The notes below the pieces were generated by a model. It saw nothing but the letters and a program-made list of their open reading frames with translations, had not been told where the DNA came from and searched no databases. Shown here one piece after another: positions 29,913-62,878 of a stretch of 64,000 nt of DNA. The DNA lies in the sequence record NC_055712.1. One strand, 5' to 3'. The stretch comes from Escherichia phage phT4A. The translations under genes were made by a program, and so were the position numbers. Numbering within the stretch: the first letter of the stretch is position 1; the number at the start of each line of letters is the position of its first letter.

Positions 29913-32129
29913 TTAGAGTTTGACTTCTTTTTCTTCCAGAACGATTGTGCAATCAAATTTCACATCTTTCCAGAATTCCGCTGCAACGATATCTGTTGCG
30001 GTAACGCTTACGCTGGTTTCTTCGAAATCCAGATCCGCAAACCATGCGTGTCCGACGACAATACCGTACATTACACGACTCAGGCGATTATTAAGGGCGC
30101 GAACCTCTTTAATAGTTTCCTTTGTCTGTTTATCAAGATACTCGATCAGGTCATTCTTGTCAAGCGCTTCGATCTCTTTAGATACGGTATCGTAAGCCCA
30201 CAGAATGATCAGGTCACCATTGTTGAGTTTCTTCTTACCTTCGGCGCGTTTTGCAACGGTAGCCGCAACAGCCGGAAGTGATGAAACGCCTTTGATTTTC
30301 ACGTTCAGTTCTTTCGACATGTAAACATCAGTCGATTCTGTGCGCTCAACCTTCGGAGAGAAGCCGTAATCACGGATCCCTTGCTCAGACAACCATTCAC
30401 CAGCCGCCTCGCCAAAACGCTGTTTAAGCCCTTCTGCGTTGCGTAAACCAATCGCGTTATCACGGAAGAACTTCATTACCTTCTGACGGCCTTTCAGGAT
30501 TTCCAGACGGACGTTATCAGCAACAAATTCCTTACCAGAAATACCGCGAGTCATCGAACGGTTAACCAGAGGCAGAGAGGTAAAGTCAACCAGTACAGAC
30601 ATACGGTCTTCACCAATTTTAGCCAGCGGTTTGATAGTCAGACCAGAAGCACGTAAGTTTTTCAGAGTCGGAATATCGGTTTCCAGCGGAAGTACCTTAA
30701 CGTTCACGATACCATCTTTAACAATGGTAAAGTTACGCACTTGTTTGGTTTCTACTTTTTCCGGTAATCCAAACTCTTTTTGTTTGCTTTCCGGAATGGT
30801 TACATAACCTTGCAGATCCGTATTGATGGAAATGTTCGGACGGGAACTGTTACCCACCAGGTGTTTCACTGCAACTTTCGTTGTGGTTTGGGTAAATTCC
30901 GGTTTCCATACTTCATGCGCTACCAGTTGCGCCGCCAGTGCTTTACGTTCTTCCGGAGTAGAAGCGTTTGCAATCTGTTCTGACAGTTTATCCAGAGTAT
31001 CATCATCTTTCTGGACAGTCTGACGGCCTGTACGATTGTACGCCCAGTGTTCAGAAGACAGGTCGATCACTGTGTCGGTTTCTGCCAGCAGTTCGAGAGC
31101 ATCAACCAGAGTAAACGCGTTTTCATCAGGAACCATGTTGTAATCAACACCATCCATCAGACGTTTAGCCGGATCAACAACCGCTTCGGAGATCATATCT
31201 TTAGCGTTGGAATAATCCTGTTTGGTAAAGCAGTTATCGTATGCTTTAATCAGACGCACATCACCCAGCTTTTTCAGAACTTTCCATGCCAGATCTGGAT
31301 TCATGGTATGAAGCGCATGATACAGAACCACATACAGAACCTGTTCACCTTCTGCTGTTGCCGGATCGAAGCCGTCAACGTCATTGATCGCGTTTTCACC
31401 CAGCGCCCAAATGTTTTTGATATGTTCCGGAACCAGAACAACACCATTTGCAGCATTCAGGACATACACACGGCCTTCATCCAGGTAGATCGCATGGGTT
31501 GCATCGCCAACTTTGACTTCAACACGTGCGGAGGTTTGCGCGGTAATGATTTCATCAAATGCAGGTACATACGCATCAAACCCTTCAACGAATTTGTGTA
31601 ATGCGTTGGTTGCTTCCGCCATTTTTTCCAGCAGAGGACGGTTTACATAATAACCATATTCCAGGAAAGCAATGTTGTTAAACGTCAACGGCAGAGTAGA
31701 ACACGCTTTCAGGATATCATCAGTACGCCAGCAGTTATCATAACCATCAGTCAGGAAGATCAGACTGTTCAGATTGCCATTATCCGCTTGCAGATCGGTA
31801 GCGACTTCAACCGCCAGTTGCAGAGGTTCAACGAAGCCAGTACATCCGGTCGGACGCAGATAACGATCGATAGCATCATTGATTTTGCTCAGGTCGGATA
31901 CAGAGCTAACCTTTTCGCCAACGAATACAGAACCGAACTGACCACGGCTGGAGAAATACAGAATAGATACGGTATCATCCTGTTTAACCAGCGTTGCCAG
32001 GTTGTTTTTCAGGTGCTGACGAATGCGCGGGAGTTCGTTATACATCGATCCGGATACGTCACAAACAAAAACGTGGTTAGTCGGGGTTGGTTTGGCTACG
32101 GCGTTTTTGAATTCAATGTTAGTGATCAT
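29913..32129 (-). CDS. von Willebrand factor A (vWA) domain protein, 738 aa
   Basis: N-terminal VFVCDVSGSM matches the MIDAS DxSxS motif, with conserved T and D further into the fold (FLTDGYD). Confidence 0.65.
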   Translation of the reverse strand: MITNIEFKNAVAKPTPTNHVFVCDVSGSMYNELPRIRQHLKNNLATLVKQDDTVSILYFSSRGQFGSVFVGEKVSSVSDLSKINDAIDRYLRPTGCTGFVEPLQLAVEVATDLQADNGNLNSLIFLTDGYDNCWRTDDILKACSTLPLTFNNIAFLEYGYYVNRPLLEKMAEATNALHKFVEGFDAYVPAFDEIITAQTSARVEVKVGDATHAIYLDEGRVYVLNAANGVVLVPEHIKNIWALGENAINDVDGFDPATAEGEQVLYVVLYHALHTMNPDLAWKVLKKLGDVRLIKAYDNCFTKQDYSNAKDMISEAVVDPAKRLMDGVDYNMVPDENAFTLVDALELLAETDTVIDLSSEHWAYNRTGRQTVQKDDDTLDKLSEQIANASTPEERKALAAQLVAHEVWKPEFTQTTTKVAVKHLVGNSSRPNISINTDLQGYVTIPESKQKEFGLPEKVETKQVRNFTIVKDGIVNVKVLPLETDIPTLKNLRASGLTIKPLAKIGEDRMSVLVDFTSLPLVNRSMTRGISGKEFVADNVRLEILKGRQKVMKFFRDNAIGLRNAEGLKQRFGEAAGEWLSEQGIRDYGFSPKVERTESTDVYMSKELNVKIKGVSSLPAVAATVAKRAEGKKKLNNGDLIILWAYDTVSKEIEALDKNDLIEYLDKQTKETIKEVRALNNRLSRVMYGIVVGHAWFADLDFEETSVSVTATDIVAAEFWKDVKFDCTIVLEEKEVKL

Positions 32130-35975: not shown

Positions 35976-36940
35976 TTGTAGTACCTCACAACATGTTCAG
36001 AATACACACGTTCAATGAAATCATTCCAGAAATCGCGATCAACTTCTTTCGGATAACCAGATACAGCCGCCAGCTTTTCAACTTCACACATCGTTGATTC
36101 TAGCGCCTCTTGTACGGTTGCGAAAGGAACACCGCCAGCTTTAACCATTTTCAAAAATGCGCTATCCGGAAGAGGATACACAATATCACCTTCTTTGAAA
36201 ATCTGGATCAATTGCATACCACCGCGCAACGCATGAGAAAGAGCTTTCCAGTCGATCCCGTTGTTGGCTTCTGCTTGCCGTGCGCGTTCCCCGTATTCAT
36301 CCCAGAGTTTATACACGGATTTCTTCATTTCCGCTACAGTGATCGTAGACTGGAATTTACGCCCCAGAACTTCATAAAATTCCTGACAACCTGATTTCAG
36401 TGTTTTGTCTGTAACGAATCGACAAAACTCATTGGTCGGGAATCGGTTAGAAATCTCACCAACTTTGATGCGCTTGCCGTAATTAGATTCATCCACGTTA
36501 CCCAGCAATGATGTACCATACCAGTAATCGGGAATCATTTGTAACACATCAACAACTTCACGCAGTGCCGCCAGGCGAGAACCTTTAACACCATACTTCG
36601 CCGCTTGCTTACGAACATAACCAAACAGGCCAGTTAATTCCGTAGTGTAGAAGCGCGAACGGTTAGCGCGGAGATATTGCCAGATATCAGAGTTAGCGAT
36701 CAGCTTGCTATCATCTGCATGAAGCATATCAATCGCCACGGTATCACCATCACATGCGAGGCTAATAAACTTTTGCAGACTGTAAATCTGACGATCTACG
36801 TCATTAACATCGTTCTTTGAGTTTTTATCACCAGTTGATGTATCGATAGACTTCTTCGCAGTGCCTAACAGGATTTCGCGAGGATGAGGGAGATAGATCC
36901 CTTTGTAGTCTTTATCGCTTGTTGGTGTTTCCAGTCCGTA
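35972..36940 (-). CDS. nucleotidyltransferase-fold protein, 5' end lost in assembly gap
   Basis: Reading frame is open from the gap edge: YGLETPTSDKDYKGIYLP... is a Pol-beta-type NTase signature (SDxD after a Gly-rich strand). Confidence 0.4.
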   Translation of the reverse strand, partial: YGLETPTSDKDYKGIYLPHPREILLGTAKKSIDTSTGDKNSKNDVNDVDRQIYSLQKFISLACDGDTVAIDMLHADDSKLIANSDIWQYLRANRSRFYTTELTGLFGYVRKQAAKYGVKGSRLAALREVVDVLQMIPDYWYGTSLLGNVDESNYGKRIKVGEISNRFPTNEFCRFVTDKTLKSGCQEFYEVLGRKFQSTITVAEMKKSVYKLWDEYGERARQAEANNGIDWKALSHALRGGMQLIQIFKEGDIVYPLPDSAFLKMVKAGGVPFATVQEALESTMCEVEKLAAVSGYPKEVDRDFWNDFIERVYSEHVVRYYK

Positions 36941-37040
36941 NNNNNNNNNNNNNNNNNNNNNNNNNNNNNNNNNNNNNNNNNNNNNNNNNNNNNNNNNNNN
37001 NNNNNNNNNNNNNNNNNNNNNNNNNNNNNNNNNNNNNNNN
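36941..37040. other. assembly gap (100 N)
   Basis: Run of exactly 100 N. Confidence 0.95.
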
Positions 37041-37410
37041 CTACATGGGTAACAATACCATCAACAGCAGAACGAGAATTAACATAAATTTTGCTAATCT
37101 CCGCCATGAAAACACTATCTCTCAGATATCGAGCAGTCACTTTATCTAAACACTGAGAAGATACTTTATCTCCGCCAGGATATACTGAGATAATCATTAC
37201 ATGACCCTGAACACGAGCGGTTCCTACTTTATGCAGAATGTAAACCATCGAACCATCAGAATCTTTAGATACAAGGATCACACTGAAAGATTCTTTGTGT
37301 TGCTTCCGAGTTTCTCCACAAGTAAAAGATACTTCCAGAAAATCACCAACTTTAACACCACGGGGTTTTGCTACTTGTTCACGAACACTAATAACAGGGA
37401 TCATAATCAT
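37041..37410 (-). CDS. hypothetical protein, 3' end lost in gap (may be the N-terminal part of the NTase-fold gene)
   Basis: ORF from ATG at 37410 is open into the gap. Confidence 0.3.
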
Positions 37411-38043: not shown

Positions 38044-38622
38044 TCAAGCAACCCCCGTAAAGGCGTTTACTATCTGGAAATGATCATCGAAGAATTCCCC
38101 TTGTCGTTGCACGACCTCATGCATAGGTAGCCAGAACGCGTCTGCTGCATCATCAGCACCGCCCATGATACGAGGCAATGAACCATCGTTATTAGGTTCG
38201 AGCTTGATATACTGTGCTACAGTCGGTTTTGAGAAGTACACCGAACGTTTCGGATGATCGAACAGCATCGAATTACGGATAGAACCACGAATAACCTTTT
38301 CAGGTACTTTAATTCGTACTTCTTCCAGTAATTCACGGATCGCACAATCAAGGAACGTTTCGTTACCGTTTTTGTGTCCACCCGGAAGCGCTAACGCATC
38401 TTTACCAGGCGCAAACTTACGACGGATTACTAACACGTGGTTATTACATACGACCACTGAATCAGCCGTGCAACAGTTCAGAGAATCCGGATACGGATAT
38501 TTTTTGAACTTGTCAATCTCTCGTTGCCAGTGCGCATCTTCATGGGACAAACGCTGGAATTCTTTTGTTTGTGTCCATTCATCGATAAAGGAAACCGTAG
38601 TGCTAGGCGCATATTTTAACAA
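38044..38622 (-). CDS. Nudix hydrolase
   Basis: Nudix box GGHKNGNETFLDCAIRELLEEV; overlaps the upstream NMNAT gene by 7 nt. Confidence 0.75.
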   Translation of the reverse strand: MLKYAPSTTVSFIDEWTQTKEFQRLSHEDAHWQREIDKFKKYPYPDSLNCCTADSVVVCNNHVLVIRRKFAPGKDALALPGGHKNGNETFLDCAIRELLEEVRIKVPEKVIRGSIRNSMLFDHPKRSVYFSKPTVAQYIKLEPNNDGSLPRIMGGADDAADAFWLPMHEVVQRQGEFFDDHFQIVNAFTGVA

Positions 38623-39116
38623 ATCTTCGTCCCAGCTTCATGGTGTTCCCAGATAATTTTGCGTAAATTGGTCGAGGACAGATCCTGGTCTCCAACCTTC
38701 ACAGATTCAACCGGAATATGATTCCATCCGAATGCTTTAAGCCAGTAAGAATCTTTGTCTTTTTCGTACCCGACGATCGCAATTCGGTCATTTCGAGTTT
38801 CATCGATTGCCATACGAACACGGGATTTCCATTTTTCCTCGTTATAGAGATAATCCGGAATGTGAGCGAATTTGATTCTGGCTGCATCTTCAACATCAAG
38901 TTTGCAGATAGACCAGCGAGTGATCATTGCTTGACGCTGTTTAGCGGTCAATGGGTTTAATGTGTTCGGATATGCATAAGCAGAACCGATCAGAATGTAA
39001 ACCGTATCAGCAACAGCAAGGGCTTCCCTTACCATTTTCTCATGACCATAGTGAAAAGGTTGAAAACGTCCAATTACTACAGCTTTATCATATTTGTGTT
39101 TCATAACGTGCTCCAC
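38616..39116 (-). CDS. nicotinamide-nucleotide adenylyltransferase (NadM-type)
   Basis: GRFQPFHYGH nucleotidyltransferase signature near N-terminus; about 166 aa. Confidence 0.75.
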   Translation of the reverse strand: MEHVMKHKYDKAVVIGRFQPFHYGHEKMVREALAVADTVYILIGSAYAYPNTLNPLTAKQRQAMITRWSICKLDVEDAARIKFAHIPDYLYNEEKWKSRVRMAIDETRNDRIAIVGYEKDKDSYWLKAFGWNHIPVESVKVGDQDLSSTNLRKIIWEHHEAGTKIC

Positions 39117-39280: not shown

Positions 39281-40207
39281 TTATTTACGAGAATCGAAAA
39301 TCACTTTACCCGCATAATCCGAACCCATTACAGTTTGAGGTACGCCACCTTTATAGCGGGTAGAGTAGTTCATCTGTACATCCAGTTCTTTCCAGCGGAT
39401 CATTTCCGGTGTAATGGTGCGTTGCAGGGCGGCGTTGGCTTCTGCTTCTTTCTTCGCTGCATACAGACGGGCATCAGCATCACGTTCGTTAGCGATTGCA
39501 GCGTTTTCACGCGCCTGGCGATCGGCTTCCGCTTGTTTTACTGCTTGTAATGAAGTCTGTTCTACTTTTTGCAGTTCAGCTTTAGCAGCGTTAACCTGTT
39601 CTTCGCGGATCTTCGTGTTAGTTACCTGTTCCATGATAACTTCCGGCAGGGTGATATCCTGCAAGAATACCTGTTTCACAGTGTAACCGTAAGGCCGTGC
39701 ATAATCTTCTACTTCCTGCTGAATTGCGATTTGCAGTTGGTTTTGGATCTTCGCATCAAACAGGTCTTGCGCTTTTGGTACGGATTTACCAAATTCGCGA
39801 ACAGTGGAAAGCAGTTTTTCAGTTACATACTTATCCAGTGCCTGATCCTGATTACCCGCGTTGATACGGTTGATCGGTGCTTTGCTACCGTCGAATTGCA
39901 GCATTACGGTCATATCCACAGTGGATTTAAATTTATCCTGGGACGGAACCTGTAATTTGTCGAACTTCATCGCGATGTCTTTGGTGCTGAACGTATCAAA
40001 CGTTGCCAGCGGGTTTACAATGTGGAAACCAGGCAGTACGGGTTTCGGTGATACTTTACCCATGAAGGTTTCAGTTTTAACCGTACCGTCTTGCACAATG
40101 GTATACATGTTAGGCACTAACCACAGTGCTGCGACTACGCCCAGAGCGATCAGAGAGGTTTTCTTCGGGTTGTTCACGATAGTGTTTAAGTTCATCATAA
40201 TTTCCAT
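39281..40207 (-). CDS. SPFH/band-7 (prohibitin/HflC-like) membrane protein
   Basis: N-terminal TM segment then a long Ala/Glu/Gln-rich coiled-coil typical of SPFH proteins. Confidence 0.6.
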   Translation of the reverse strand: MEIMMNLNTIVNNPKKTSLIALGVVAALWLVPNMYTIVQDGTVKTETFMGKVSPKPVLPGFHIVNPLATFDTFSTKDIAMKFDKLQVPSQDKFKSTVDMTVMLQFDGSKAPINRINAGNQDQALDKYVTEKLLSTVREFGKSVPKAQDLFDAKIQNQLQIAIQQEVEDYARPYGYTVKQVFLQDITLPEVIMEQVTNTKIREEQVNAAKAELQKVEQTSLQAVKQAEADRQARENAAIANERDADARLYAAKKEAEANAALQRTITPEMIRWKELDVQMNYSTRYKGGVPQTVMGSDYAGKVIFDSRK

Positions 40208-41456: not shown

Positions 41457-42065
41457 TTATTCTTCCACTGTATCAGGGTTGTTCTTTAGTTGCAAGTAAT
41501 GTTTTCGACAAAGTGAAACATATTTGTCTTCGGCCCCGATCTCAATCTGGTCGCCATTAGCAACAAATTTGCCATTTGCATCAATACGGGCAACGGTAGT
41601 TGCTTTCTTTCCACAATGACAAACCCCCCGCAACTCCCTGATCTCATCAGCAAGTGCCAGCAACATATAAGAACCTTCAAACAGGTTCAACTGAAAATCG
41701 GTTCTTAGTCCATATGTCATTACGGGTATATCTAATTCGTCAACAACCCGACACAGATCCATGACATTTTTCCTGGAAAGGAATTGTGCTTCGTCCACAA
41801 ACACACAAGAAACTAGTTTCTGGCTGTCGCTATAAAAATGATTGTTGTGAACATCATAATATAAGTCCATATCAGGTGTGATCATGGTACATGTTGCTTC
41901 CAACCCAATACGCGAAGAGATACTCTGTTTACCTTCTCGCGTATCAATTGCTGGTTTGTACATCAGGATCCGCATACCGCGTTCCTGGTAGTTGTATGCA
42001 TCGGTGAGTAAACGAGCACTCTTGCCAGCATTCATTGATGCATAATGAAAATATAGTTTAGCCAT
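41457..42065 (-). CDS. tk: thymidine kinase
   Basis: P-loop YASMNAGKSARL, VDEAQF, and C-terminal zinc ribbon CHCG...C. Confidence 0.85.
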   Translation of the reverse strand: MAKLYFHYASMNAGKSARLLTDAYNYQERGMRILMYKPAIDTREGKQSISSRIGLEATCTMITPDMDLYYDVHNNHFYSDSQKLVSCVFVDEAQFLSRKNVMDLCRVVDELDIPVMTYGLRTDFQLNLFEGSYMLLALADEIRELRGVCHCGKKATTVARIDANGKFVANGDQIEIGAEDKYVSLCRKHYLQLKNNPDTVEE

Positions 42066-42288
42066 TTATCCTCTCAACAAAATCTGGGGTATTTTGGAAT
42101 TTCCCTTCCCCTTCATGGTTTTTGCATGTTTTATTTGAACAGTAGATCCACCAATCCCACTCATCATAAGGGGGTTTGGTAATGTTCATTACGCAAATTA
42201 AAGGGAAATGACAATCCCGACAACGAACTTTTTCTATAATGTGTGCGTTAGCCAATTGAAAACCATCCTTTACCCATGAGTTTTTCAT
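42058..42288 (-). CDS. hypothetical Cys-rich protein (start uncertain)
   Basis: ORF overlapping neighbours; start set at an internal Met. Confidence 0.25.
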   Translation of the reverse strand: MKNSWVKDGFQLANAHIIEKVRCRDCHFPLICVMNITKPPYDEWDWWIYCSNKTCKNHEGEGKFQNTPDFVERING

Positions 42289-42475
42289 TATGTCGCGCAA
42301 GATACTCTTTGATTTCTGGCATCCGGATCGCAGTGTCATACTCTTCTTTCGTCATGGTATGATTTGCGCAACCCATACACCCGCACACCTGCGCGTTACA
42401 CCAACGGAGTGTTCCATATGTCGCAATCACCTTCATTGCTTTAGCTTTGATTTTGTCAGTCATGATTATAACCAC
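42248..42475 (-). CDS. hypothetical Cys-rich protein
   Basis: ORF with CNAQVCGCMGCANH cluster. Confidence 0.3.
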   Translation of the reverse strand: MVIIMTDKIKAKAMKVIATYGTLRWCNAQVCGCMGCANHTMTKEEYDTAIRMPEIKEYLARHNEKLMGKGWFSIG

Positions 42476-42743
42476 TCATTTCGTTATCTTGTGCTTGATG
42501 TATATCAAGATACCACATATTGATTTTGCTTTTCAGTTCGTCCATTTCCTTACTCAGACAATTGTCAACGATACATAGAACATTAACAGTTTCTTTACGC
42601 TGCATAATGTTGATGTTATTCGCTTTCATCGCTTGCGCCAATGCATTATAGGTTTTAACCAGTGCGGCGCGTTGTCCTTTGATTACGGCGATCCGCTTGT
42701 TTGCTTTCTTAATCTCCCGACCTGCTTTGATAGGATCCATCAT
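42456..42743 (-). CDS. hypothetical protein
   Basis: ORF only. Confidence 0.35.
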   Translation of the reverse strand: MMDPIKAGREIKKANKRIAVIKGQRAALVKTYNALAQAMKANNINIMQRKETVNVLCIVDNCLSKEMDELKSKINMWYLDIHQAQDNEMSGYNHD

Positions 42744-42745
42744 GA

Positions 42746-43219
42746 TTAATTCGCCTTACGAGGATCGAAATGAACGACAATGATCGGGTAATCACCAGTC
42801 ACCTCATTAATAATGCGCTTAATGAGTTCCCAGTCGCCCCCAGCGAGGCCAGCACCGATTAAAGGTGTGATGATAGGCTTTCCAGTCTTAACGGCGTCAG
42901 CAAGCCCTACAGCCTGTTTAAAAGCATTGCCGATTGCGTCATAATCGACACGCGGCCCAGGTGTCCAGAAATCATATTGAGTATATGCATTGAAAACAAT
43001 GTTGCCTTTTTCGCCAATGTAAACAGAACAAGTTCCGAGCTTATCACGGGAACCTTTTAACGTATTGGCATCAACTTGAAATGCACCAGGAATACGATCG
43101 CGGATTTCGCGAGCAATACCAGCGCCCATATTGCAATAGCAGTTGCATCCGTGGATCAAATGGCCTTCACCGTTCAGATACATATTGACAGCATTACCTT
43201 TCACTTCTTTAATGATCAT
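42746..43219 (-). CDS. macro-domain protein (ADP-ribose binding/processing)
   Basis: HGCNCYCNMGAGIAREI and PLIGAGLAGG resemble the macro-domain Gly-rich loops (NAAN...GGGV..AI, P.ISTG..G); start set at MIIKEVKG. Confidence 0.6.
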   Translation of the reverse strand: MIIKEVKGNAVNMYLNGEGHLIHGCNCYCNMGAGIAREIRDRIPGAFQVDANTLKGSRDKLGTCSVYIGEKGNIVFNAYTQYDFWTPGPRVDYDAIGNAFKQAVGLADAVKTGKPIITPLIGAGLAGGDWELIKRIINEVTGDYPIIVVHFDPRKAN

Positions 43220-43303
43220 TTTTATTTTTCCGATATAGTAGGGCCACAACAAGGCCCATCAAAATCACAAGGATCCACAATACAGTGAATTGAACCCCTA
43301 CGC

Positions 43304-43492
43304 TCATTTTCTCGCTTTCCGTTCACGGCGGCGATCTTCTTGATGACACATATATAAAACACCACCAAAAATTATAAAACCGATAACAACGCCTATAAAG
43401 TATCCAGCACTAAACATAGTCATCATCCCCGCAATAGTAACAAGGCCCAGTGCTCTCATGCTTACCAGCATTGTACGCCAAGAACACCACAA
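43304..43492 (-). CDS. small membrane protein
   Basis: Two hydrophobic segments, basic C-terminus. Confidence 0.35.
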   Translation of the reverse strand: MWCSWRTMLVSMRALGLVTIAGMMTMFSAGYFIGVVIGFIIFGGVLYMCHQEDRRRERKARK

Positions 43493-43525
43493 CCGCCGCC
43501 ATAATAATAAAAATCCAGATAGCCA

Positions 43526-43849
43526 TTAGTAAAGTCCTATGCCAGCATTGAATTCGTCAACCAAATAAGTACGGAACTTTTCGCACCGTTCCTTATTTGG
43601 CGCTTGTTTGCATAGATTCATCATTGGTTCAGACTGCAAAAACTCTTTTTGTTTCAGCAACTTACCGCGTTTATACAGGTGAGCATTTTCCTCTCCCCAC
43701 ATATAAGCAACATCTAACTGTTCTGCGATCACTTGCTTACATACTGCGACATCTTTGATATCACGATTGTTGCATAACTCATCCAGGCGAGCATCACCCG
43801 CGTGAGCAAATCCAGCAACCAGAGTTAAAAGCAGTGCTAACTTTTTCAT
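43526..43849 (-). CDS. hypothetical secreted protein
   Basis: N-terminal MKKLALLLTLVAGFAHA signal peptide; paired Cys. Confidence 0.45.
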   Translation of the reverse strand: MKKLALLLTLVAGFAHAGDARLDELCNNRDIKDVAVCKQVIAEQLDVAYMWGEENAHLYKRGKLLKQKEFLQSEPMMNLCKQAPNKERCEKFRTYLVDEFNAGIGLY

Positions 43850-44458: not shown

Positions 44459-44620
44459 TCCCCGTTTTTGTCAATATACATGATCCAATCAGCAACCGAC
44501 CAATGGGAAGTATTGCCTTTCGGAGTCGCTACGATGTAGGAACCAGCTTTAAACAGTACGCGTTTAGTTTCGTTCAGGATCAGGTCGCTCATAATGTATT
44601 CCTCTCAATTAGATGCATCC

Positions 44621-44660
44621 ATAATAAAAAAGCCCCCGACCGAAGTCAAGGGCTTTTTGT
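44621..44660 (-). promoter_or_regulatory. stem-loop + sigma70 promoter cassette (PeSL-like)
   Basis: Minus strand: hairpin GCCCTTGACTTCGGTCGGGGGC carrying TTGACT, 17-nt spacer, TATTAT. Confidence 0.5.
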
Positions 44661-45301
44661 CAAATGATTTGTTTTTCTTCTAACAGCTTCGCGGTTGTAT
44701 TAACCATACGAGCATAATCACGGGCTTCTTTCTTTGTATACTTGAAACCAGCGTTATAGCTCGCCAGCGCCTTTTTCAAGTCGCCTTTGTGGTAATCAAG
44801 CCAATACTCCAGTTCATAGATCGCATACTTCGATCCACCTTGAAGAGTTTCGAGCTTTTTGATTACTACGCGTTTAGGATATGACTTATCCATTCGTGCG
44901 CTGGCGCTCCTTGCGGTAACTTGCCAGCATCCATAAGCGTGATGGCCTTTTTTACCTTTACCGACATTCTCACATGCGCGAGACTCGATCCAGGCAATAG
45001 CCGCTAAATGATAGCCTAAACGTTTAGCCTTATCTTTTTCTACAGGTTTTGCAGTCTTCAAATCATAGTTGTGTCCAACTCGATAAGCATACTCCAAAAC
45101 CTCTTTCTGCTTCGGTGTAATGTTATCCAAATCCTTGATGTAGGATGGAGAATTTTTGTTTGCCGGAGGCTTCACAGTAGCCTTTTGTAAAGGCAATTGA
45201 TGAGTAGGCAAATCCGCAATGAAATCCCCTAGCGGATCCGTCGCAGCGTTGCCAGAAAAAGAGCACAAGAAAATGCTGGCAGCAATAATAATTTTCTTCA
45301 T
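44660..45301 (-). CDS. secreted lytic transglycosylase-like protein (SLT domain)
   Basis: Signal peptide MKKIIIAASIFLCSFSGNA; SLT-like IAWIESR, GCWQV, SYNAG motifs. Confidence 0.5.
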   Translation of the reverse strand: MKKIIIAASIFLCSFSGNAATDPLGDFIADLPTHQLPLQKATVKPPANKNSPSYIKDLDNITPKQKEVLEYAYRVGHNYDLKTAKPVEKDKAKRLGYHLAAIAWIESRACENVGKGKKGHHAYGCWQVTARSASARMDKSYPKRVVIKKLETLQGGSKYAIYELEYWLDYHKGDLKKALASYNAGFKYTKKEARDYARMVNTTAKLLEEKQII

Positions 45302-45365
45302 TTTAATACCTATGTTGCAAAAAGAGGGGCAATAATACACCCCACTTTATATTTATGCAACTATT

Positions 45366-51896: not shown

Positions 51897-52177
51897 TTAT
51901 CACCATCTGCTTTAATCTGTAAATTAGCCAGGAATGAAAACATAATATCACAGTTGCTTTCGATTAGATAGCGATATTTTAATACGGTACTTACCTCTTC
52001 CGGTTCTACCGTAGTGACCTTAATGTCTTTAGCACAAAGATCATAATCGTTACAGTACCCGTCAATATCCATAAGCGTTTTGTTTTCATCTGGATATAAT
52101 TCCAGCAAATACGCATCTTCATCAGTTACCAGCGCAACTATCCGGTTGCGCCTTGTGTTATAGGTTAAGATCTTCAT
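51881..52177 (-). CDS. hypothetical protein
   Basis: ORF only. Confidence 0.35.
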   Translation of the reverse strand: MKILTYNTRRNRIVALVTDEDAYLLELYPDENKTLMDIDGYCNDYDLCAKDIKVTTVEPEEVSTVLKYRYLIESNCDIMFSFLANLQIKADGDKWGCI

Positions 52178-53328
52178 TTCAATTCCACCGCGTATACATC
52201 CAATTCAGGGGCTTTGTGTACGCGCATATCTTTACCACATACAGCATAAGCCGGACAGTTACGGCAACCATTATGATCCTTATTACCGATCAATTCCTGA
52301 CGGAATTTCTTAGTTTTCGGATGTTCCCAGATATCTTTGATAAAGTCACTGGCTTCCAGTACGTTAAGCCCTTCTGACCATCCACCCTCGACCCAACGTT
52401 CAGTAAAGGAACAAGGGAAGAATTCACCCTTCTCGTTGATGTACGAGCTAAACATAGTTGCTTCGCAATCTTCCGCGTACTGTTTGTATTGTTCAAAATT
52501 TTCATGCCCTTCCATAGCCTCTACAAAGGCCGGAGCGGAACAGGAATCAAAACCGAACCCTACACCGGATTCAAGGCAATAATCTACCAGCGCTTTATAC
52601 TGCTCGCGTGTAACGGTATCCCAGTTCTTCCCACGACCTTTTTGTTTCAGACCCAGGAATACGATCGCGTTAACTTGTTTCAAGCGCGGATCATTCTTTA
52701 CAGCATCAACCACGTTAAACGCGTCATCATAGGTTTTAGAGCTAACCATGAAATGAAGGTTGATTTGCTGTTGTCCGGCTTCTGCAAGATTAGCCACTGA
52801 ATTAAACGCTACATCGAATCCAGCATGTTTGTATACTGATACCGCAACAGCCCCAGCAACAGCCGCTAAACGCGCTGCAACGTCTTTTGATACATCAGCA
52901 ATGGTAAGGTTCGGCACAATGCCTTTAGAACGCGCATAGGCCATCATATCAAACATATCAGGGTTTGTTTGTCCCTGTGCATCAGCACCGAGGGCGCATT
53001 GAGTCAGCCAGGGCATTTTGTCGATGATTTTGGTGAAGGTGGCAAGATCCATGTTGAACCCGTTCGGGTTATTGGACTTGTAGCAGAACCCGCAGAGTTT
53101 ACCCGCTGGCCCGTTGCATTTGGTAGTGATCTCGATATCGAGGATAAAAGGAAAATGACTATAAATAGGATCGTCAGCAGGAGTTTTTCCCCAAGTCATC
53201 ATATGACCTGTTTTCATATCAAAATTAAAATTAACCTCTTCGGAACGATAGATTTTCTTTCCTTTCGCTTCCAGTAGAAGTCCAACAGGCGTTTTGATAT
53301 GTTTGGCGTTTACTTTAACGTGTCTCAT
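52174..53328 (-). CDS. cysteine-rich putative Fe-S protein (radical SAM/SPASM-like, non-canonical spacing)
   Basis: Cys triad C-x7-C-x2-C (TKCNGPAGKLCGFCY) and C-terminal CRNCPAYAVC (CxxCx5C); start set at MRHVKV. Confidence 0.35.
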   Translation of the reverse strand: MRHVKVNAKHIKTPVGLLLEAKGKKIYRSEEVNFNFDMKTGHMMTWGKTPADDPIYSHFPFILDIEITTKCNGPAGKLCGFCYKSNNPNGFNMDLATFTKIIDKMPWLTQCALGADAQGQTNPDMFDMMAYARSKGIVPNLTIADVSKDVAARLAAVAGAVAVSVYKHAGFDVAFNSVANLAEAGQQQINLHFMVSSKTYDDAFNVVDAVKNDPRLKQVNAIVFLGLKQKGRGKNWDTVTREQYKALVDYCLESGVGFGFDSCSAPAFVEAMEGHENFEQYKQYAEDCEATMFSSYINEKGEFFPCSFTERWVEGGWSEGLNVLEASDFIKDIWEHPKTKKFRQELIGNKDHNGCRNCPAYAVCGKDMRVHKAPELDVYAVELK

Positions 53329-53340
53329 AGGAACCTCATA

Positions 53341-54069
53341 ATGTATTACGTTTACAGAATCACGAATGTTATAGAGAACAAGCACTATTATGGATCAAGA
53401 AAACCTAAAAAGTCAATGCTTGCTTCCGACGATTTAGGGAAACACTATTTCAGTAGTTCCCGTGATAGTCATTTCATCCAGGATCAGAAGGAAAATCCAG
53501 GACACTACAAATATAAAATAATCGTATCTGGGTTGTCAAGGGAAAAAGCGATGAAACTTGAGAAAAGGTTACACGAAATCTACAAGGTGGACAAGAACCC
53601 ACATTTTTATAACAAACACATACACAACAGCATTGATTTTTCATGTACGCCAGAAACAGGAAAGAAGATTTCTCAAACACATCAGAAATACGCAGCAAAG
53701 AAAATCTCAGAATCCCATAAAAGGCGATTCAAGGAAGGTATTGCATCACACAAAGGAGAGAACAACCCACGATACAACGACCATCGGTCTTATGAAGAGA
53801 TACACGGAGAGGAAAGAGCGGAAGCTATACGTAAAGCGCAATCTGAATCAAGAAGTGGAAAAGGCAATTCCCGCGCGGTTATGTGGAGATTTACTTCCCC
53901 TACTGGAGAAGAATTTTTAGTTGAAGGAGAATGTAAAAAGTTTTGCAAAGACAGAAATATTTCCATGCGCAAACTGAAAACATATTTTGGTGAAGTCATC
54001 ACAACATGTGATAAACCCTACGATATCTCTAAGAATACCGTAGGATGGAAATTAGAAAAGATTATTTGA
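53341..54069 (+). CDS. GIY-YIG homing endonuclease (Seg-like)
   Basis: N-terminal YYVYRITNVIENKHYYGSRK is a GIY-YIG motif; NUMOD-like segments (ETGKKISQTHQ, GENNPRYN); sole plus-strand gene within a minus-strand array. Confidence 0.8.
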   Translation: MYYVYRITNVIENKHYYGSRKPKKSMLASDDLGKHYFSSSRDSHFIQDQKENPGHYKYKIIVSGLSREKAMKLEKRLHEIYKVDKNPHFYNKHIHNSIDFSCTPETGKKISQTHQKYAAKKISESHKRRFKEGIASHKGENNPRYNDHRSYEEIHGEERAEAIRKAQSESRSGKGNSRAVMWRFTSPTGEEFLVEGECKKFCKDRNISMRKLKTYFGEVITTCDKPYDISKNTVGWKLEKII

Positions 54070-62203: not shown

Positions 62204-62827
62204 TCACTGATTTTTGAAGTATTCGATCTGACGCAAACGCTTTTCAGCGGCGGCTTTCGAATCGTATTCACCAAGTTCTTTTGTGTGATCGTGATTCAAA
62301 ACAACCCACTTATCGCCACGCTGTTCAATGTGTTCTGTAATATCTTTTAACGACTTATCCAGATCCAGTGATTCAGCCTCTTCACAGATAATAGTCAAAT
62401 CCACGGGCAGTGTCAACAACCTTTTTACTCCGCTGATATCATCAAGCATCGAATCGTATGCAAGGGTTACGTGCGGTTTGTAATCCGGATAATCGTATGT
62501 TGCGCCAGCATCAATAGAATCTTTGAAACGGCTATGCAGGTATTCAGATTCCAGGATCCCTACGATAGTGCTACCGTATTTTGTGTCCCACTTTTCAACA
62601 TCAACCAGTTTAGCAGGTTCTGTGATGTCCTGTTGCGGGAACAAATCAACCGTTTTCCGGCTGTATACGATCGTTGTATGCATCTTTTCGGCTGAAACAG
62701 CATTCTTTGTGATACCTAATGTCTTTTGAACATTTTTCAAAGCCTCACATGAAGCCTGATCGAATTTAGCACACATGTAGATACCAGGATCTACAACAGG
62801 TTTTGTGATTTCAAGAAATGATTTCAT
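62204..62827 (-). CDS. 2H phosphoesterase-superfamily protein (LigT/cyclic phosphodiesterase-like)
   Basis: Two H-x-T-x motifs, HTTIVY and HVTLAY, about 75 aa apart. Confidence 0.55.
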   Translation of the reverse strand: MKSFLEITKPVVDPGIYMCAKFDQASCEALKNVQKTLGITKNAVSAEKMHTTIVYSRKTVDLFPQQDITEPAKLVDVEKWDTKYGSTIVGILESEYLHSRFKDSIDAGATYDYPDYKPHVTLAYDSMLDDISGVKRLLTLPVDLTIICEEAESLDLDKSLKDITEHIEQRGDKWVVLNHDHTKELGEYDSKAAAEKRLRQIEYFKNQ

Positions 62828-62878
62828 AAAACACCCCAATAAAAAAGGGGCCGAAGCCCCTTTGTAATAAATTTGTTT

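Follow-up and report, generated by a model that had tools for sequence, protein, structure and literature searches.

In 2025, a transposon screen of phage T4 under the DarTG2 defense singled out tk.4, the only gene to reach significance, and T4 with a clean knock-out of tk.4 became sensitive to DarTG2; tk.4 was given the name adfM, and its product was proposed to strip ADP-ribose from DNA enzymatically (bioRxiv 10.1101/2025.11.20.689424). This result agrees with previous work in which T4 kept its DarTG2 resistance in the absence of adfA and adfN (PMC11825919). Macrodomain proteins of chimalliviruses, such as PhiKZ gp104, were named AdfM independently, and PhiKZ gp104 was found to remove thymidine-linked ADP-ribose (T-ADPr) from single-stranded DNA (ssDNA) in vitro (PMC13309987). 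Here, we describe a gene of this family in Escherichia phage phT4A (sequence record NC_055712.1). The gene occupies positions 42746 to 43219 on the minus strand of a 64,000-nucleotide (nt) stretch, which is referred to below as the window, and it codes for a macrodomain protein of 157 amino acids (aa).

Two further systems were close enough to the phT4A protein to guide its interpretation. The first is SCO6735 of Streptomyces coelicolor, which surpasses DarG and TARG1 in the efficiency with which it clears DarT-made ADP-ribose from ssDNA thymidine and which also shields cells from DarT (PMC9411070). The Q85A mutant of SCO6735 is inactive on T-ADPr DNA and the N27S mutant is nearly so, and the mechanism proposed for the enzyme is water-mediated, with the Gln positioning the distal ribose (PMC9411070). 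The second is Adpp of Vibrio phage Gary (KNV71_gp137), the gene for which lies between those for Adps and Namat. Purified Gary Adpp turns ADP-ribose-1''-phosphate (ADPR-1P) into ADP-ribose (ADPR), and the Adps-Adpp-Namat operon defeats aRES, a RES-domain nicotinamide adenine dinucleotide (NAD+) phosphorylase defense that was cloned from E. coli, Enterobacter, and K. pneumoniae (bioRxiv 10.64898/2026.01.28.702374).

Fold, class, and active site

The coding sequence (CDS) and the three motifs on which its interpretation depends were located as follows.

42746..43219 (-): macrodomain CDS, 157 aa (17.0 kDa, isoelectric point [pI] 7.65), positional counterpart of T4 tk.4/adfM
43112..43153 (-): loop 1, H23-G-C-N26-C-Y-C-N-M-G32-A-G34-I-A36, in which the GxG is the first ADP-ribose-binding loop
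42977..42991 (-): N77-A-Y-T-Q81, located with profile and multiple alignments
42830..42865 (-): loop 2, P119-L-I-G122-A-G124-L-A126-G-G-D-W130, the diphosphate-binding loop, located with invariant columns and alignments

Judged from its sequence, the gene encodes a stand-alone, single-domain macrodomain that is predicted to be catalytically competent, and the activity that we predict with near certainty is that of a Gln-type, ALC1-like ADP-ribose C1''-hydrolase. The protein matched the Pfam family Macro (PF01661) with 30.1 bits, compared to a gathering cut-off of 22 (E 5e-7), and the match paired residues 22-136 of the protein with positions 1-117 of the 118 in the profile. It also matched PHROG 335 (E 7e-57), and 3620 database homologues were found with E <= 1e-5. 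An AlphaFold2 model built on 40 homologues had a mean predicted local distance difference test score (pLDDT) of 94.1 and a predicted template modeling score (pTM) of 0.90. Its three-layer α/β/α fold, with a central mixed sheet, was superposable on solved macrodomains. When Foldseek was used against the PDB, the top matches were human TARG1 (E 2.6e-9), yeast Poa1p (E 9e-9), Bacteroides BT1257, and T. aquaticus DarG, with E values from 3e-9 to 3e-8 and template modeling scores (TM) of up to 0.78. This open reading frame (ORF) was the sole macrodomain ORF in the 64-kb window.

An earlier note on this DNA had called the ORF a macro-domain protein on the basis of two Gly-rich motifs, had named Foldseek as a check, and had stated that the call should be given up if no macro fold was predicted or if the loop residues were lost on alignment. 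Both motifs were found verbatim in the translation of 42746..43219 (-): HGCNCYCNMGAGIA, which is followed by REI, is encoded at 43112..43153, and PLIGAGLAGG(DW), the string PLIGAGLAGGDW, is encoded at 42830..42865. The call held up. Fold prediction and alignments both gave a macrodomain, Foldseek placed macrodomains on top in the PDB, and the two Gly-rich ADP-ribose-binding loops (M31-G-A-G34 and I121-G-A-G-L-A-G-G128) were intact and conserved.

Because Foldseek placed TARG1, Poa1p, BT1257, and DarG on top, the protein was assigned to the ALC1-like class. Its nearest neighbors by structure and by profile belong to this class (TARG1, DarG, SCO6735, and Poa1p) and not to the MacroD, PARG, or macroH2A classes. 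MacroD-type enzymes carry a catalytic Asp within the G-G-G-V-D motif of loop 1. A MacroD type was rejected for the phT4A protein, which has Ala36 where the MacroD type has this Asp and whose closest folds were not MacroD.

Active-site residues were aligned with those of TARG1 (by profile), PhiKZ gp104, homologues from seven further phage lineages, and the DarT-linked DarG of K. pneumoniae plasmid p4-KP21300; the roles of the residues in DarG, PhiKZ AdfM, and SCO6735 were taken from previous work (PMC13309987, PMC9411070). An alignment to DarG via the C-terminal 96 aa against PDB sequences was abandoned when DarG dropped out of it, and PhiKZ gp104 and the plasmid DarG were used instead. H23, G24, C25, N26, M31, G34, and A36 were invariant across 40 homologues, and Asn26 aligned with N22 of DarG, N23 of PhiKZ AdfM, and N27 of SCO6735. 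Gln81, which was also invariant in the 40 homologues, stands at the position of the catalytic Lys in TARG1 (K84), DarG (K80), and PhiKZ AdfM (K78). Lys-type proteins have this Lys after strand β5, and the phT4A protein has Gln81 in that column. What it does have is the Gln-type arrangement of SCO6735 and BT1257, a Gln together with the loop 1 Asn, as Q81 and N26 align with Q85 and N27 of SCO6735. Ala126 in loop 2 is at the position of the catalytic Asp125 of TARG1. G122 and G124 are matched by residues one and three of the SCO6735 IGCGL loop, which we take to be G126 and G128 of SCO6735. The subclass read from these alignments, with a Gln at the catalytic-Lys position, goes beyond what the earlier note had seen. 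The same Gln type was found in T4 Tk.4, CC31 Tk.4, Gary Adpp, and the sampled Vequintavirus, Pakpunavirus, Mooglevirus (Ounavirinae), Ackermannviridae, and jumbo-phage homologues; PhiKZ gp104 was the only Lys-type protein among the phage proteins sampled.

Comparisons with characterized macrodomains followed the same division. SCO6735 (PDB 5E3B) and BT1257 (2FG1/2AFC) have the His, Asn, Gln, and GxG positions in common with the phT4A protein, but they are cellular proteins, not phage proteins, and their identity to it is 26-28%. SCO6735 also differs at Lys34 and Lys89, which correspond to Ala33 and Trp85, and at Val25, the backbone of which holds the proposed catalytic water and which corresponds to Gly24. 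The DarG proteins of T. aquaticus (5M3E), M. tuberculosis (5M3I), and p4-KP21300 share the conserved loop 1 Asn; however, they have the catalytic Lys in place of Gln81, and the phT4A gene has neither a region for the C-terminal DarT-binding domain nor an adjacent darT. The M-G-A-G-I-A of loop 1 is identical in TARG1, but the K84/D125 dyad of TARG1 is replaced by Q81/A126. Poa1p has the H23-x-C-N-C motif in common with the phT4A protein and differs from it in its extra insertions (180 aa) and in its role in tRNA-splicing by-product metabolism. Finally, PhiKZ gp104 is likewise a stand-alone phage protein of PHROG 335 with the loop 1 Asn conserved, but its catalytic K78 is matched by Gln81, and the identity is 23%. 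As a proxy for DNA binding, the pI was uninformative and was set aside (7.65 for the phT4A protein, 5.9 for the T4 protein, and 5.05 for the DNA-active PhiKZ AdfM).

Position between vs and tk

In the 2 kb that surround the macrodomain gene, identity to Klebsiella phages CP-p-KP-21068, BL02, Matisse, Miro, and KP27 was 99.0-99.6%; these phages are all T4-like Straboviridae. The closest complete relative was CP-p-KP-21068 (PV864763.1; 99.6% identity), and the window was colinear with it over 32 kb except for a few indels. The gene was found in a block of minus-strand genes with the order vs, three tiny ORFs, the macrodomain gene, three small ORFs, and tk. The synteny anchors and the immediate neighbors of the gene are the following.

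43526..43849 (-): homologue of vs (valyl-tRNA synthetase modifier), upstream synteny anchor, from the ORF and the PV864763.1 annotation
43209..43307 (-): upstream hydrophobic 32-aa ORF, translation MSVGVQFTVLWILVILMGLVVALLYRKNKNDH, an annotated CDS in PV864763.1
42456..42743 (-): downstream 95-aa ORF, without a family match in a Pfam scan
41457..42065 (-): thymidine kinase gene (tk), downstream synteny anchor, from the ORF; annotated as thymidine kinase in PV864763.1

The gene order in T4 is vs, tk.4, tk.3, tk.2, tk.1, tk, and that in CC31 is vs, p119, tk.4, tk; the position of the phT4A gene between vs and tk is the same as that of tk.4 in both phages. The vs homologue at 43526..43849 had no Pfam match of its own. 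The phT4A protein could be aligned along its full length with T4 Tk.4 (32% identity over 157 aa, E 1e-27) and was 43% identical to CC31 Tk.4, and PHROG 335 was common to these three proteins and PhiKZ gp104. Because the slot between vs and tk, the full-length alignment, and PHROG 335 are all shared, the gene was taken to be the positional counterpart of tk.4, which is annotated in T4 as "phosphatase; A1pp motif."

The likeness to T4 Tk.4 extends to the single-domain architecture, the length (155 aa in T4 versus 157 aa), the H-G-C-N-C, Y-T-Q, and I-G-A-G motifs, and the Gln type. On the other hand, the loop after Gln81 is 3-4 residues longer in the phT4A protein, loop 2 reads LAGGDW in place of the T4 IGKGNW, the identity is only 32%, and function was tested for the T4 gene alone, by genetic means. 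The gene was nearly unchanged in more than 100 sequenced Klebsiella, Enterobacter, and related T4-like phages, most records of which label it "hypothetical protein" or "phosphatase," and a homologue was found in 2706 phage records.

The macrodomain ORF runs from an ATG at 43219 to a stop codon at 42746-42748. A TTG at 43252 would be a mechanically possible alternative start and would yield a 168-aa form. The ATG at 43219 was judged to be the right start because the T4-like homologues, all of which have MI(I/V)K as their N-terminus, begin in the same way and because this 474-nt CDS is also the one given in the closest genome with an annotation.

The ORFs in this part of the block are tightly packed, which suggests that the macrodomain gene and the hydrophobic 32-aa ORF form one transcription unit: the 3' end of the latter overlaps the macrodomain start by 11 nt. 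The downstream 95-aa ORF has its ATG at 42743, two bases past the macrodomain stop codon. A scan for promoter-like sites yielded 14, compared to 11.4 +/- 3.5 in shuffled sequences, and thus no enrichment. Terminator-like sites were somewhat more numerous than in shuffles (8 versus a mean of 3.4 +/- 2.0), and none was assigned to the macrodomain gene; the sites at 43533..43504 and 43399..43371 (-) near the gene, which came from the same promoter and terminator scan, are candidates only. We also observed a perfect 5-bp GC inverted repeat (GGGCC-N7-GGCCC) at 43241..43257, about 20-40 nt upstream of the macrodomain start codon. It is located inside the hydrophobic 32-aa ORF and has no T-run after it.

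Candidate substrates and roles

We consider it probable that the phT4A protein is a counter-defense enzyme. The earlier note had put the gene forward as an anti-defense factor, and experiments on two of its homologues, T4 tk.4/adfM (against DarTG2) and Gary Adpp (against aRES), bear this suggestion out. As for its main substrate, our preferred candidate is the ADP-ribosyl-thymidine that DarT2 makes on phage ssDNA, which would give the protein the role of T4 AdfM; we give this assignment about an even chance of being correct.

If so, the gene would be expressed, perhaps early in infection, as part of the non-essential block of small genes between tk and vs. The ADP-ribose moiety would be bound by the two Gly-rich loops, and the distal ribose would be held by Gln81, which Asn26 would position. 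The enzyme would then hydrolyze the C1''-N3 bond of the ADP-ribosyl-thymidine placed on phage ssDNA by host DarT2, free ADP-ribose would be released, and the phage DNA could be replicated again. The chemistry would be that of a water-mediated Gln, as proposed for SCO6735, and not that of a Lys, as in DarG and TARG1. Thus described, the protein would be an orphan antitoxin-like eraser that acts against DarTG2-type defense without the toxin-binding domain of DarG.

Gln81 is no argument against DNA de-ADP-ribosylation, because SCO6735 performs this reaction with Gln85; SCO6735 was the third-best PDB profile match of the phT4A protein (E 7e-17). DarTG2 is also present in K. pneumoniae, the host species considered here, because a DarT and DarG pair is found on plasmid p4-KP21300 (NZ_CP124697.1; L015:1670-4116). 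The pair consists of a 444-aa DarT of the ssDNA thymidine ADP-ribosyltransferase family and a 371-aa macro-DarG of the Lys type. The plasmid is a mobilizable IncFIA/IncFII/IncR clinical plasmid, and the darTG pair adjoins repE and IS903B. A 2023 proteomic study of Klebsiella phages listed a "macrodomain, toxin-antitoxin" HHpred match, possibly in relatives of the phT4A protein, for myoviruses vB_KpnM_VAC13 and vB_KpnM-VAC66 (PMC10100988).

Several findings weigh against a DarT2-made substrate. DarT homologues were present on only 2 of 72,556 Klebsiella plasmid records, in a survey that covered plasmids and not chromosomes, and a literature search returned no DarTG census in K. pneumoniae. For T4, the evidence is of a genetic kind and was published as a preprint. 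The phage AdfM that has been proven biochemically, PhiKZ gp104, is of the Lys type and distant in sequence (23% identity, 35 bits), and the two SCO6735 residues replaced by Ala33 and Trp85, K34 and K89, are DNA-positioning residues. Moreover, the similarity of the phT4A protein to Gary Adpp (88.2 bits) equals that to T4 Tk.4 (87.8 bits), a neighbor-joining (NJ) tree with deep bootstraps of 5-26% left the AdfM versus Adpp grouping unsettled, and aRES, the target of Adpp, was cloned from K. pneumoniae.

The last of these findings bear on a second reading, which we regard as unlikely but the best of the alternatives: the main in vivo substrate would be ADPR-1P, made from NAD+ by aRES, and the protein would, like Gary Adpp and yeast Poa1p, dephosphorylate it to ADP-ribose for recycling by the phage. 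The sequence similarity to Gary Adpp is consistent with this (37-39% identity; 37.4% over 147 aa with E 9e-28, and 38.7% by tblastn) and is level with that to T4 Tk.4, and the old "phosphatase" annotation rests on the same homology. Gary Adpp is a single-domain, Gln-type phage protein with an identical loop 2 core, L-I-G-x-G-L-A-G-G-D-W. However, it has H-Q-C-N and Y-G-Q where the phT4A protein has H-G-C-N and Y-T-Q. The H-Q-x-N and Y-G-Q forms were found in both of the NARP1-linked homologues examined, whereas T4 and CC31 have the forms of phT4A, a weak point in that it involves two sequences.

In BLASTP comparisons, the phT4A protein scored 97.4 bits with a Nampt-adjacent Pakpunavirus homologue, and T4 Tk.4 and Gary Adpp scored 77 bits with each other (35% identity). 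The NJ tree with bootstraps grouped the phT4A protein with that of Yersinia phage JC221 (88%) and those of other T4-like phages (49%) and left the NARP1-linked proteins outside; as its deep nodes were unresolved, this phylogeny was set aside for the assignment. Sequence thus does not decide between AdfM and Adpp, and it is genomic context that discriminates.

All three NARP1-AP genes were required in Gary for the anti-aRES phenotype, and a macro gene is present in only 15% of 859 NARP1 operons (bioRxiv 10.64898/2026.01.28.702374). Given this fraction and the 2706 phage records with a homologue, most family members seem to work without NARP1. The Gary gene is flanked by Adps and Namat, both of which its phenotype requires, whereas the phT4A gene is in the tk-vs slot, without an adjacent Adps-Namat operon. 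A tblastn search with Gary Adps (E <= 1e-3) found no Adps homologue in the window or in the whole of PV864763.1, and therefore no NARP1 in the closest complete relative. NAD-salvage genes do occur in this phage lineage, with a NadM-Nudix gene 3.6 kb from the macrodomain gene and a Nampt homologue elsewhere in the genome of the relative. However, the sole match to a Namat query in PV864763.1 was this 30%-identical Nampt-type gene, which is paired with NadM-Nudix, and the two make up a NARP2-like set that needs phosphoribosyl pyrophosphate (PRPP), not ADPR. Finally, T4, which has its gene in the same slot, has the DarTG2 phenotype.

The NadM-Nudix gene of the window (38044..39116, minus strand) encodes a fusion of a NadM-type nicotinamide mononucleotide adenylyltransferase to a Nudix domain and is an intact 353-aa CDS ("cytidyltransferase") in CP-p-KP-21068. 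Through a single-base deletion in the window (GAAGGCTGG to GAA-GCTGG), the gene is broken into two ORFs, 166 and 192 aa long, and this is either a frameshifted pseudogene or a sequencing error. Together with the Nampt homologue elsewhere in the relative's genome, NadM-Nudix would form a NARP2-like NAD+ salvage pair. Macro genes near NAD-salvage genes were also observed in two other phages: in Gary (L008:1632-4662), the macro gene is between Adps-like and Namat-like genes, and in Pseudomonas phage GEC_MRC (L007:1-1980), the macro homologue is one small ORF downstream of a nicotinamide phosphoribosyltransferase gene.

An improbable third reading is that the protein erases mono-ADP-ribose from proteins (Glu/Asp-linked) or from RNA and in this way undoes a host ADP-ribosyltransferase (ART) defense or tunes the phage's own ADP-ribosylation. 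TARG1 and SCO6735 hydrolyze Glu/Asp-linked mono-ADP-ribose on proteins, and TARG1 also acts on phosphate-linked ADP-ribose on nucleic acids (PMC8883491, PMC9411070); the family is, moreover, widespread in large phages (PMC9503650). However, the Lys/Asp dyad that TARG1 uses on proteins is replaced by Q81 and A126, and no such phenotype has been reported for tk.4. No product is named ADP-ribosyltransferase in the PV864763.1 annotation, which is a weak point, as many of its genes are "hypothetical," and among large unassigned ORFs in the window, those scanned had VWA, SPASM, or Acb1 domains and no ART domains.

It is very improbable that the protein intercepts Thoeris-type signals (cyclic ADPR isomers or His-ADPR) by binding or cleavage and thereby silences TIR-based defense. 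There were weak matches to the macro domain of ThsA (PF20016, E 8e-4, 19.6 bits against a cut-off of 25; PADLOC ThsA, E 0.03), and Iyer et al. have argued that phage macro domains target mostly small ADPr derivatives (PMC9503650). On the other side, the invariant catalytic-type residues favor an enzyme over a sponge, and the literature searched held no experimental precedent for this subfamily.

Two other identities were rejected. The protein is not a DarG antitoxin: it scored 22.8 bits with NCBIfam NF048014, compared to a cut-off of 250, the match covered only model positions 15-151 of 338, and its 157 aa lack the second (DarT-binding) domain of the 371-aa K. pneumoniae DarG. In addition, a Pfam scan of the ten neighboring ORFs found no darT or other ADP-ribosyltransferase gene next to the macrodomain gene. 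A place in an RNA-repair (Tpt1/2H/Poa1p) pathway was dropped because the "RNA ligase" at 62204..62839 is Acb1 and not an Appr>p-processing 2H enzyme.

Neighboring genes and the AdfM/Adpp family

The Acb1 gene (62204..62839, minus strand), annotated as "RNA ligase" in the relative, encodes an anti-CBASS cyclic-nucleotide phosphodiesterase (Pfam PF23474, E 2e-47) and is a second counter-defense gene in the window. Nearer to the macrodomain gene, a 93-aa "Phage zinc binding domain" protein (PF23895, E 3e-30) is encoded at 42058..42339 (-) and overlaps the tk start. Upstream of vs, 44660..45340 (-) encodes a 226-aa SLT lytic transglycosylase-domain protein with a signal-like N-terminus. A 308-aa SPFH/Band 7 protein (Pfam E 4e-19), a "lipoprotein" in the relative, is encoded at 39281..40207 (-) between the rI-region genes and NadM-Nudix.

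Further away, the 738-aa ORF at 29913..32129 (-) has an N-terminal von Willebrand factor A domain (Pfam VWA_2, E 1.5e-6) and is "hypothetical" in the relative. The 403-aa ORF at 52174..53385 (-) has a SPASM iron-sulfur domain and is possibly radical-SAM related; its 5' end is overlapped by a 256-aa ORF at 53299..54069 (+), the position of which matches a "homing endonuclease" CDS of the relative. The window also had indels relative to CP-p-KP-21068. About 880 bp of the relative, with parts of three hypothetical genes, were replaced by about 100 bp at ~36940..37041, and a 396-nt hypothetical gene of the relative was absent near 44.6 kb (~44586..44604). Other blocks fell to 95% identity around 52-57 kb.

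The family, its fold, and the function of the T4 counterpart are already in the literature, and the protein encoded at 42746..43219 is a new member. Phage proteins named AdfM are of two chemical types, Gln and Lys, and the Gln type belongs to the same subfamily as Adpp. When the two proteins that both bear the name AdfM were compared by BLASTP, T4 Tk.4 (L002:4923-5390) and PhiKZ gp104 (L004:12518-13006) matched with 21 bits and E 0.005 over 23 residues. The residue at the catalytic position is Gln in T4 and Lys in PhiKZ, and T4 AdfM is much closer to Gary Adpp.

While we prefer erasure of DarT2 marks as the main role of the phT4A protein, a more tentative idea is that the subfamily of T4 AdfM and Gary Adpp is one dual-substrate C1''-hydrolase that both erases DarT2 marks and dephosphorylates aRES-made ADPR-1P. 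We raise this idea, which we think doubtful, because T4 AdfM and Gary Adpp are Gln-type proteins of one subfamily, to both of which the phT4A protein is equally close, and because each reaction removes a group attached to C1'' of the distal ribose. If it is true, one small protein would counter two unrelated defenses, and where a phage also has NadM-Nudix and Nampt, ribose phosphate from the freed ADP-ribose might be returned to NAD+ salvage. The Gln-type T4 AdfM and the Lys-type PhiKZ AdfM would then be convergent solutions that use different chemistry.

Several carriers of the gene are phage-therapy candidates, and both DarTG2 and possibly aRES occur in K. pneumoniae. Relabeling the gene product as a probable counter-defense ADP-ribose hydrolase of the AdfM/Adpp family helps to predict which host defenses such phages bypass.

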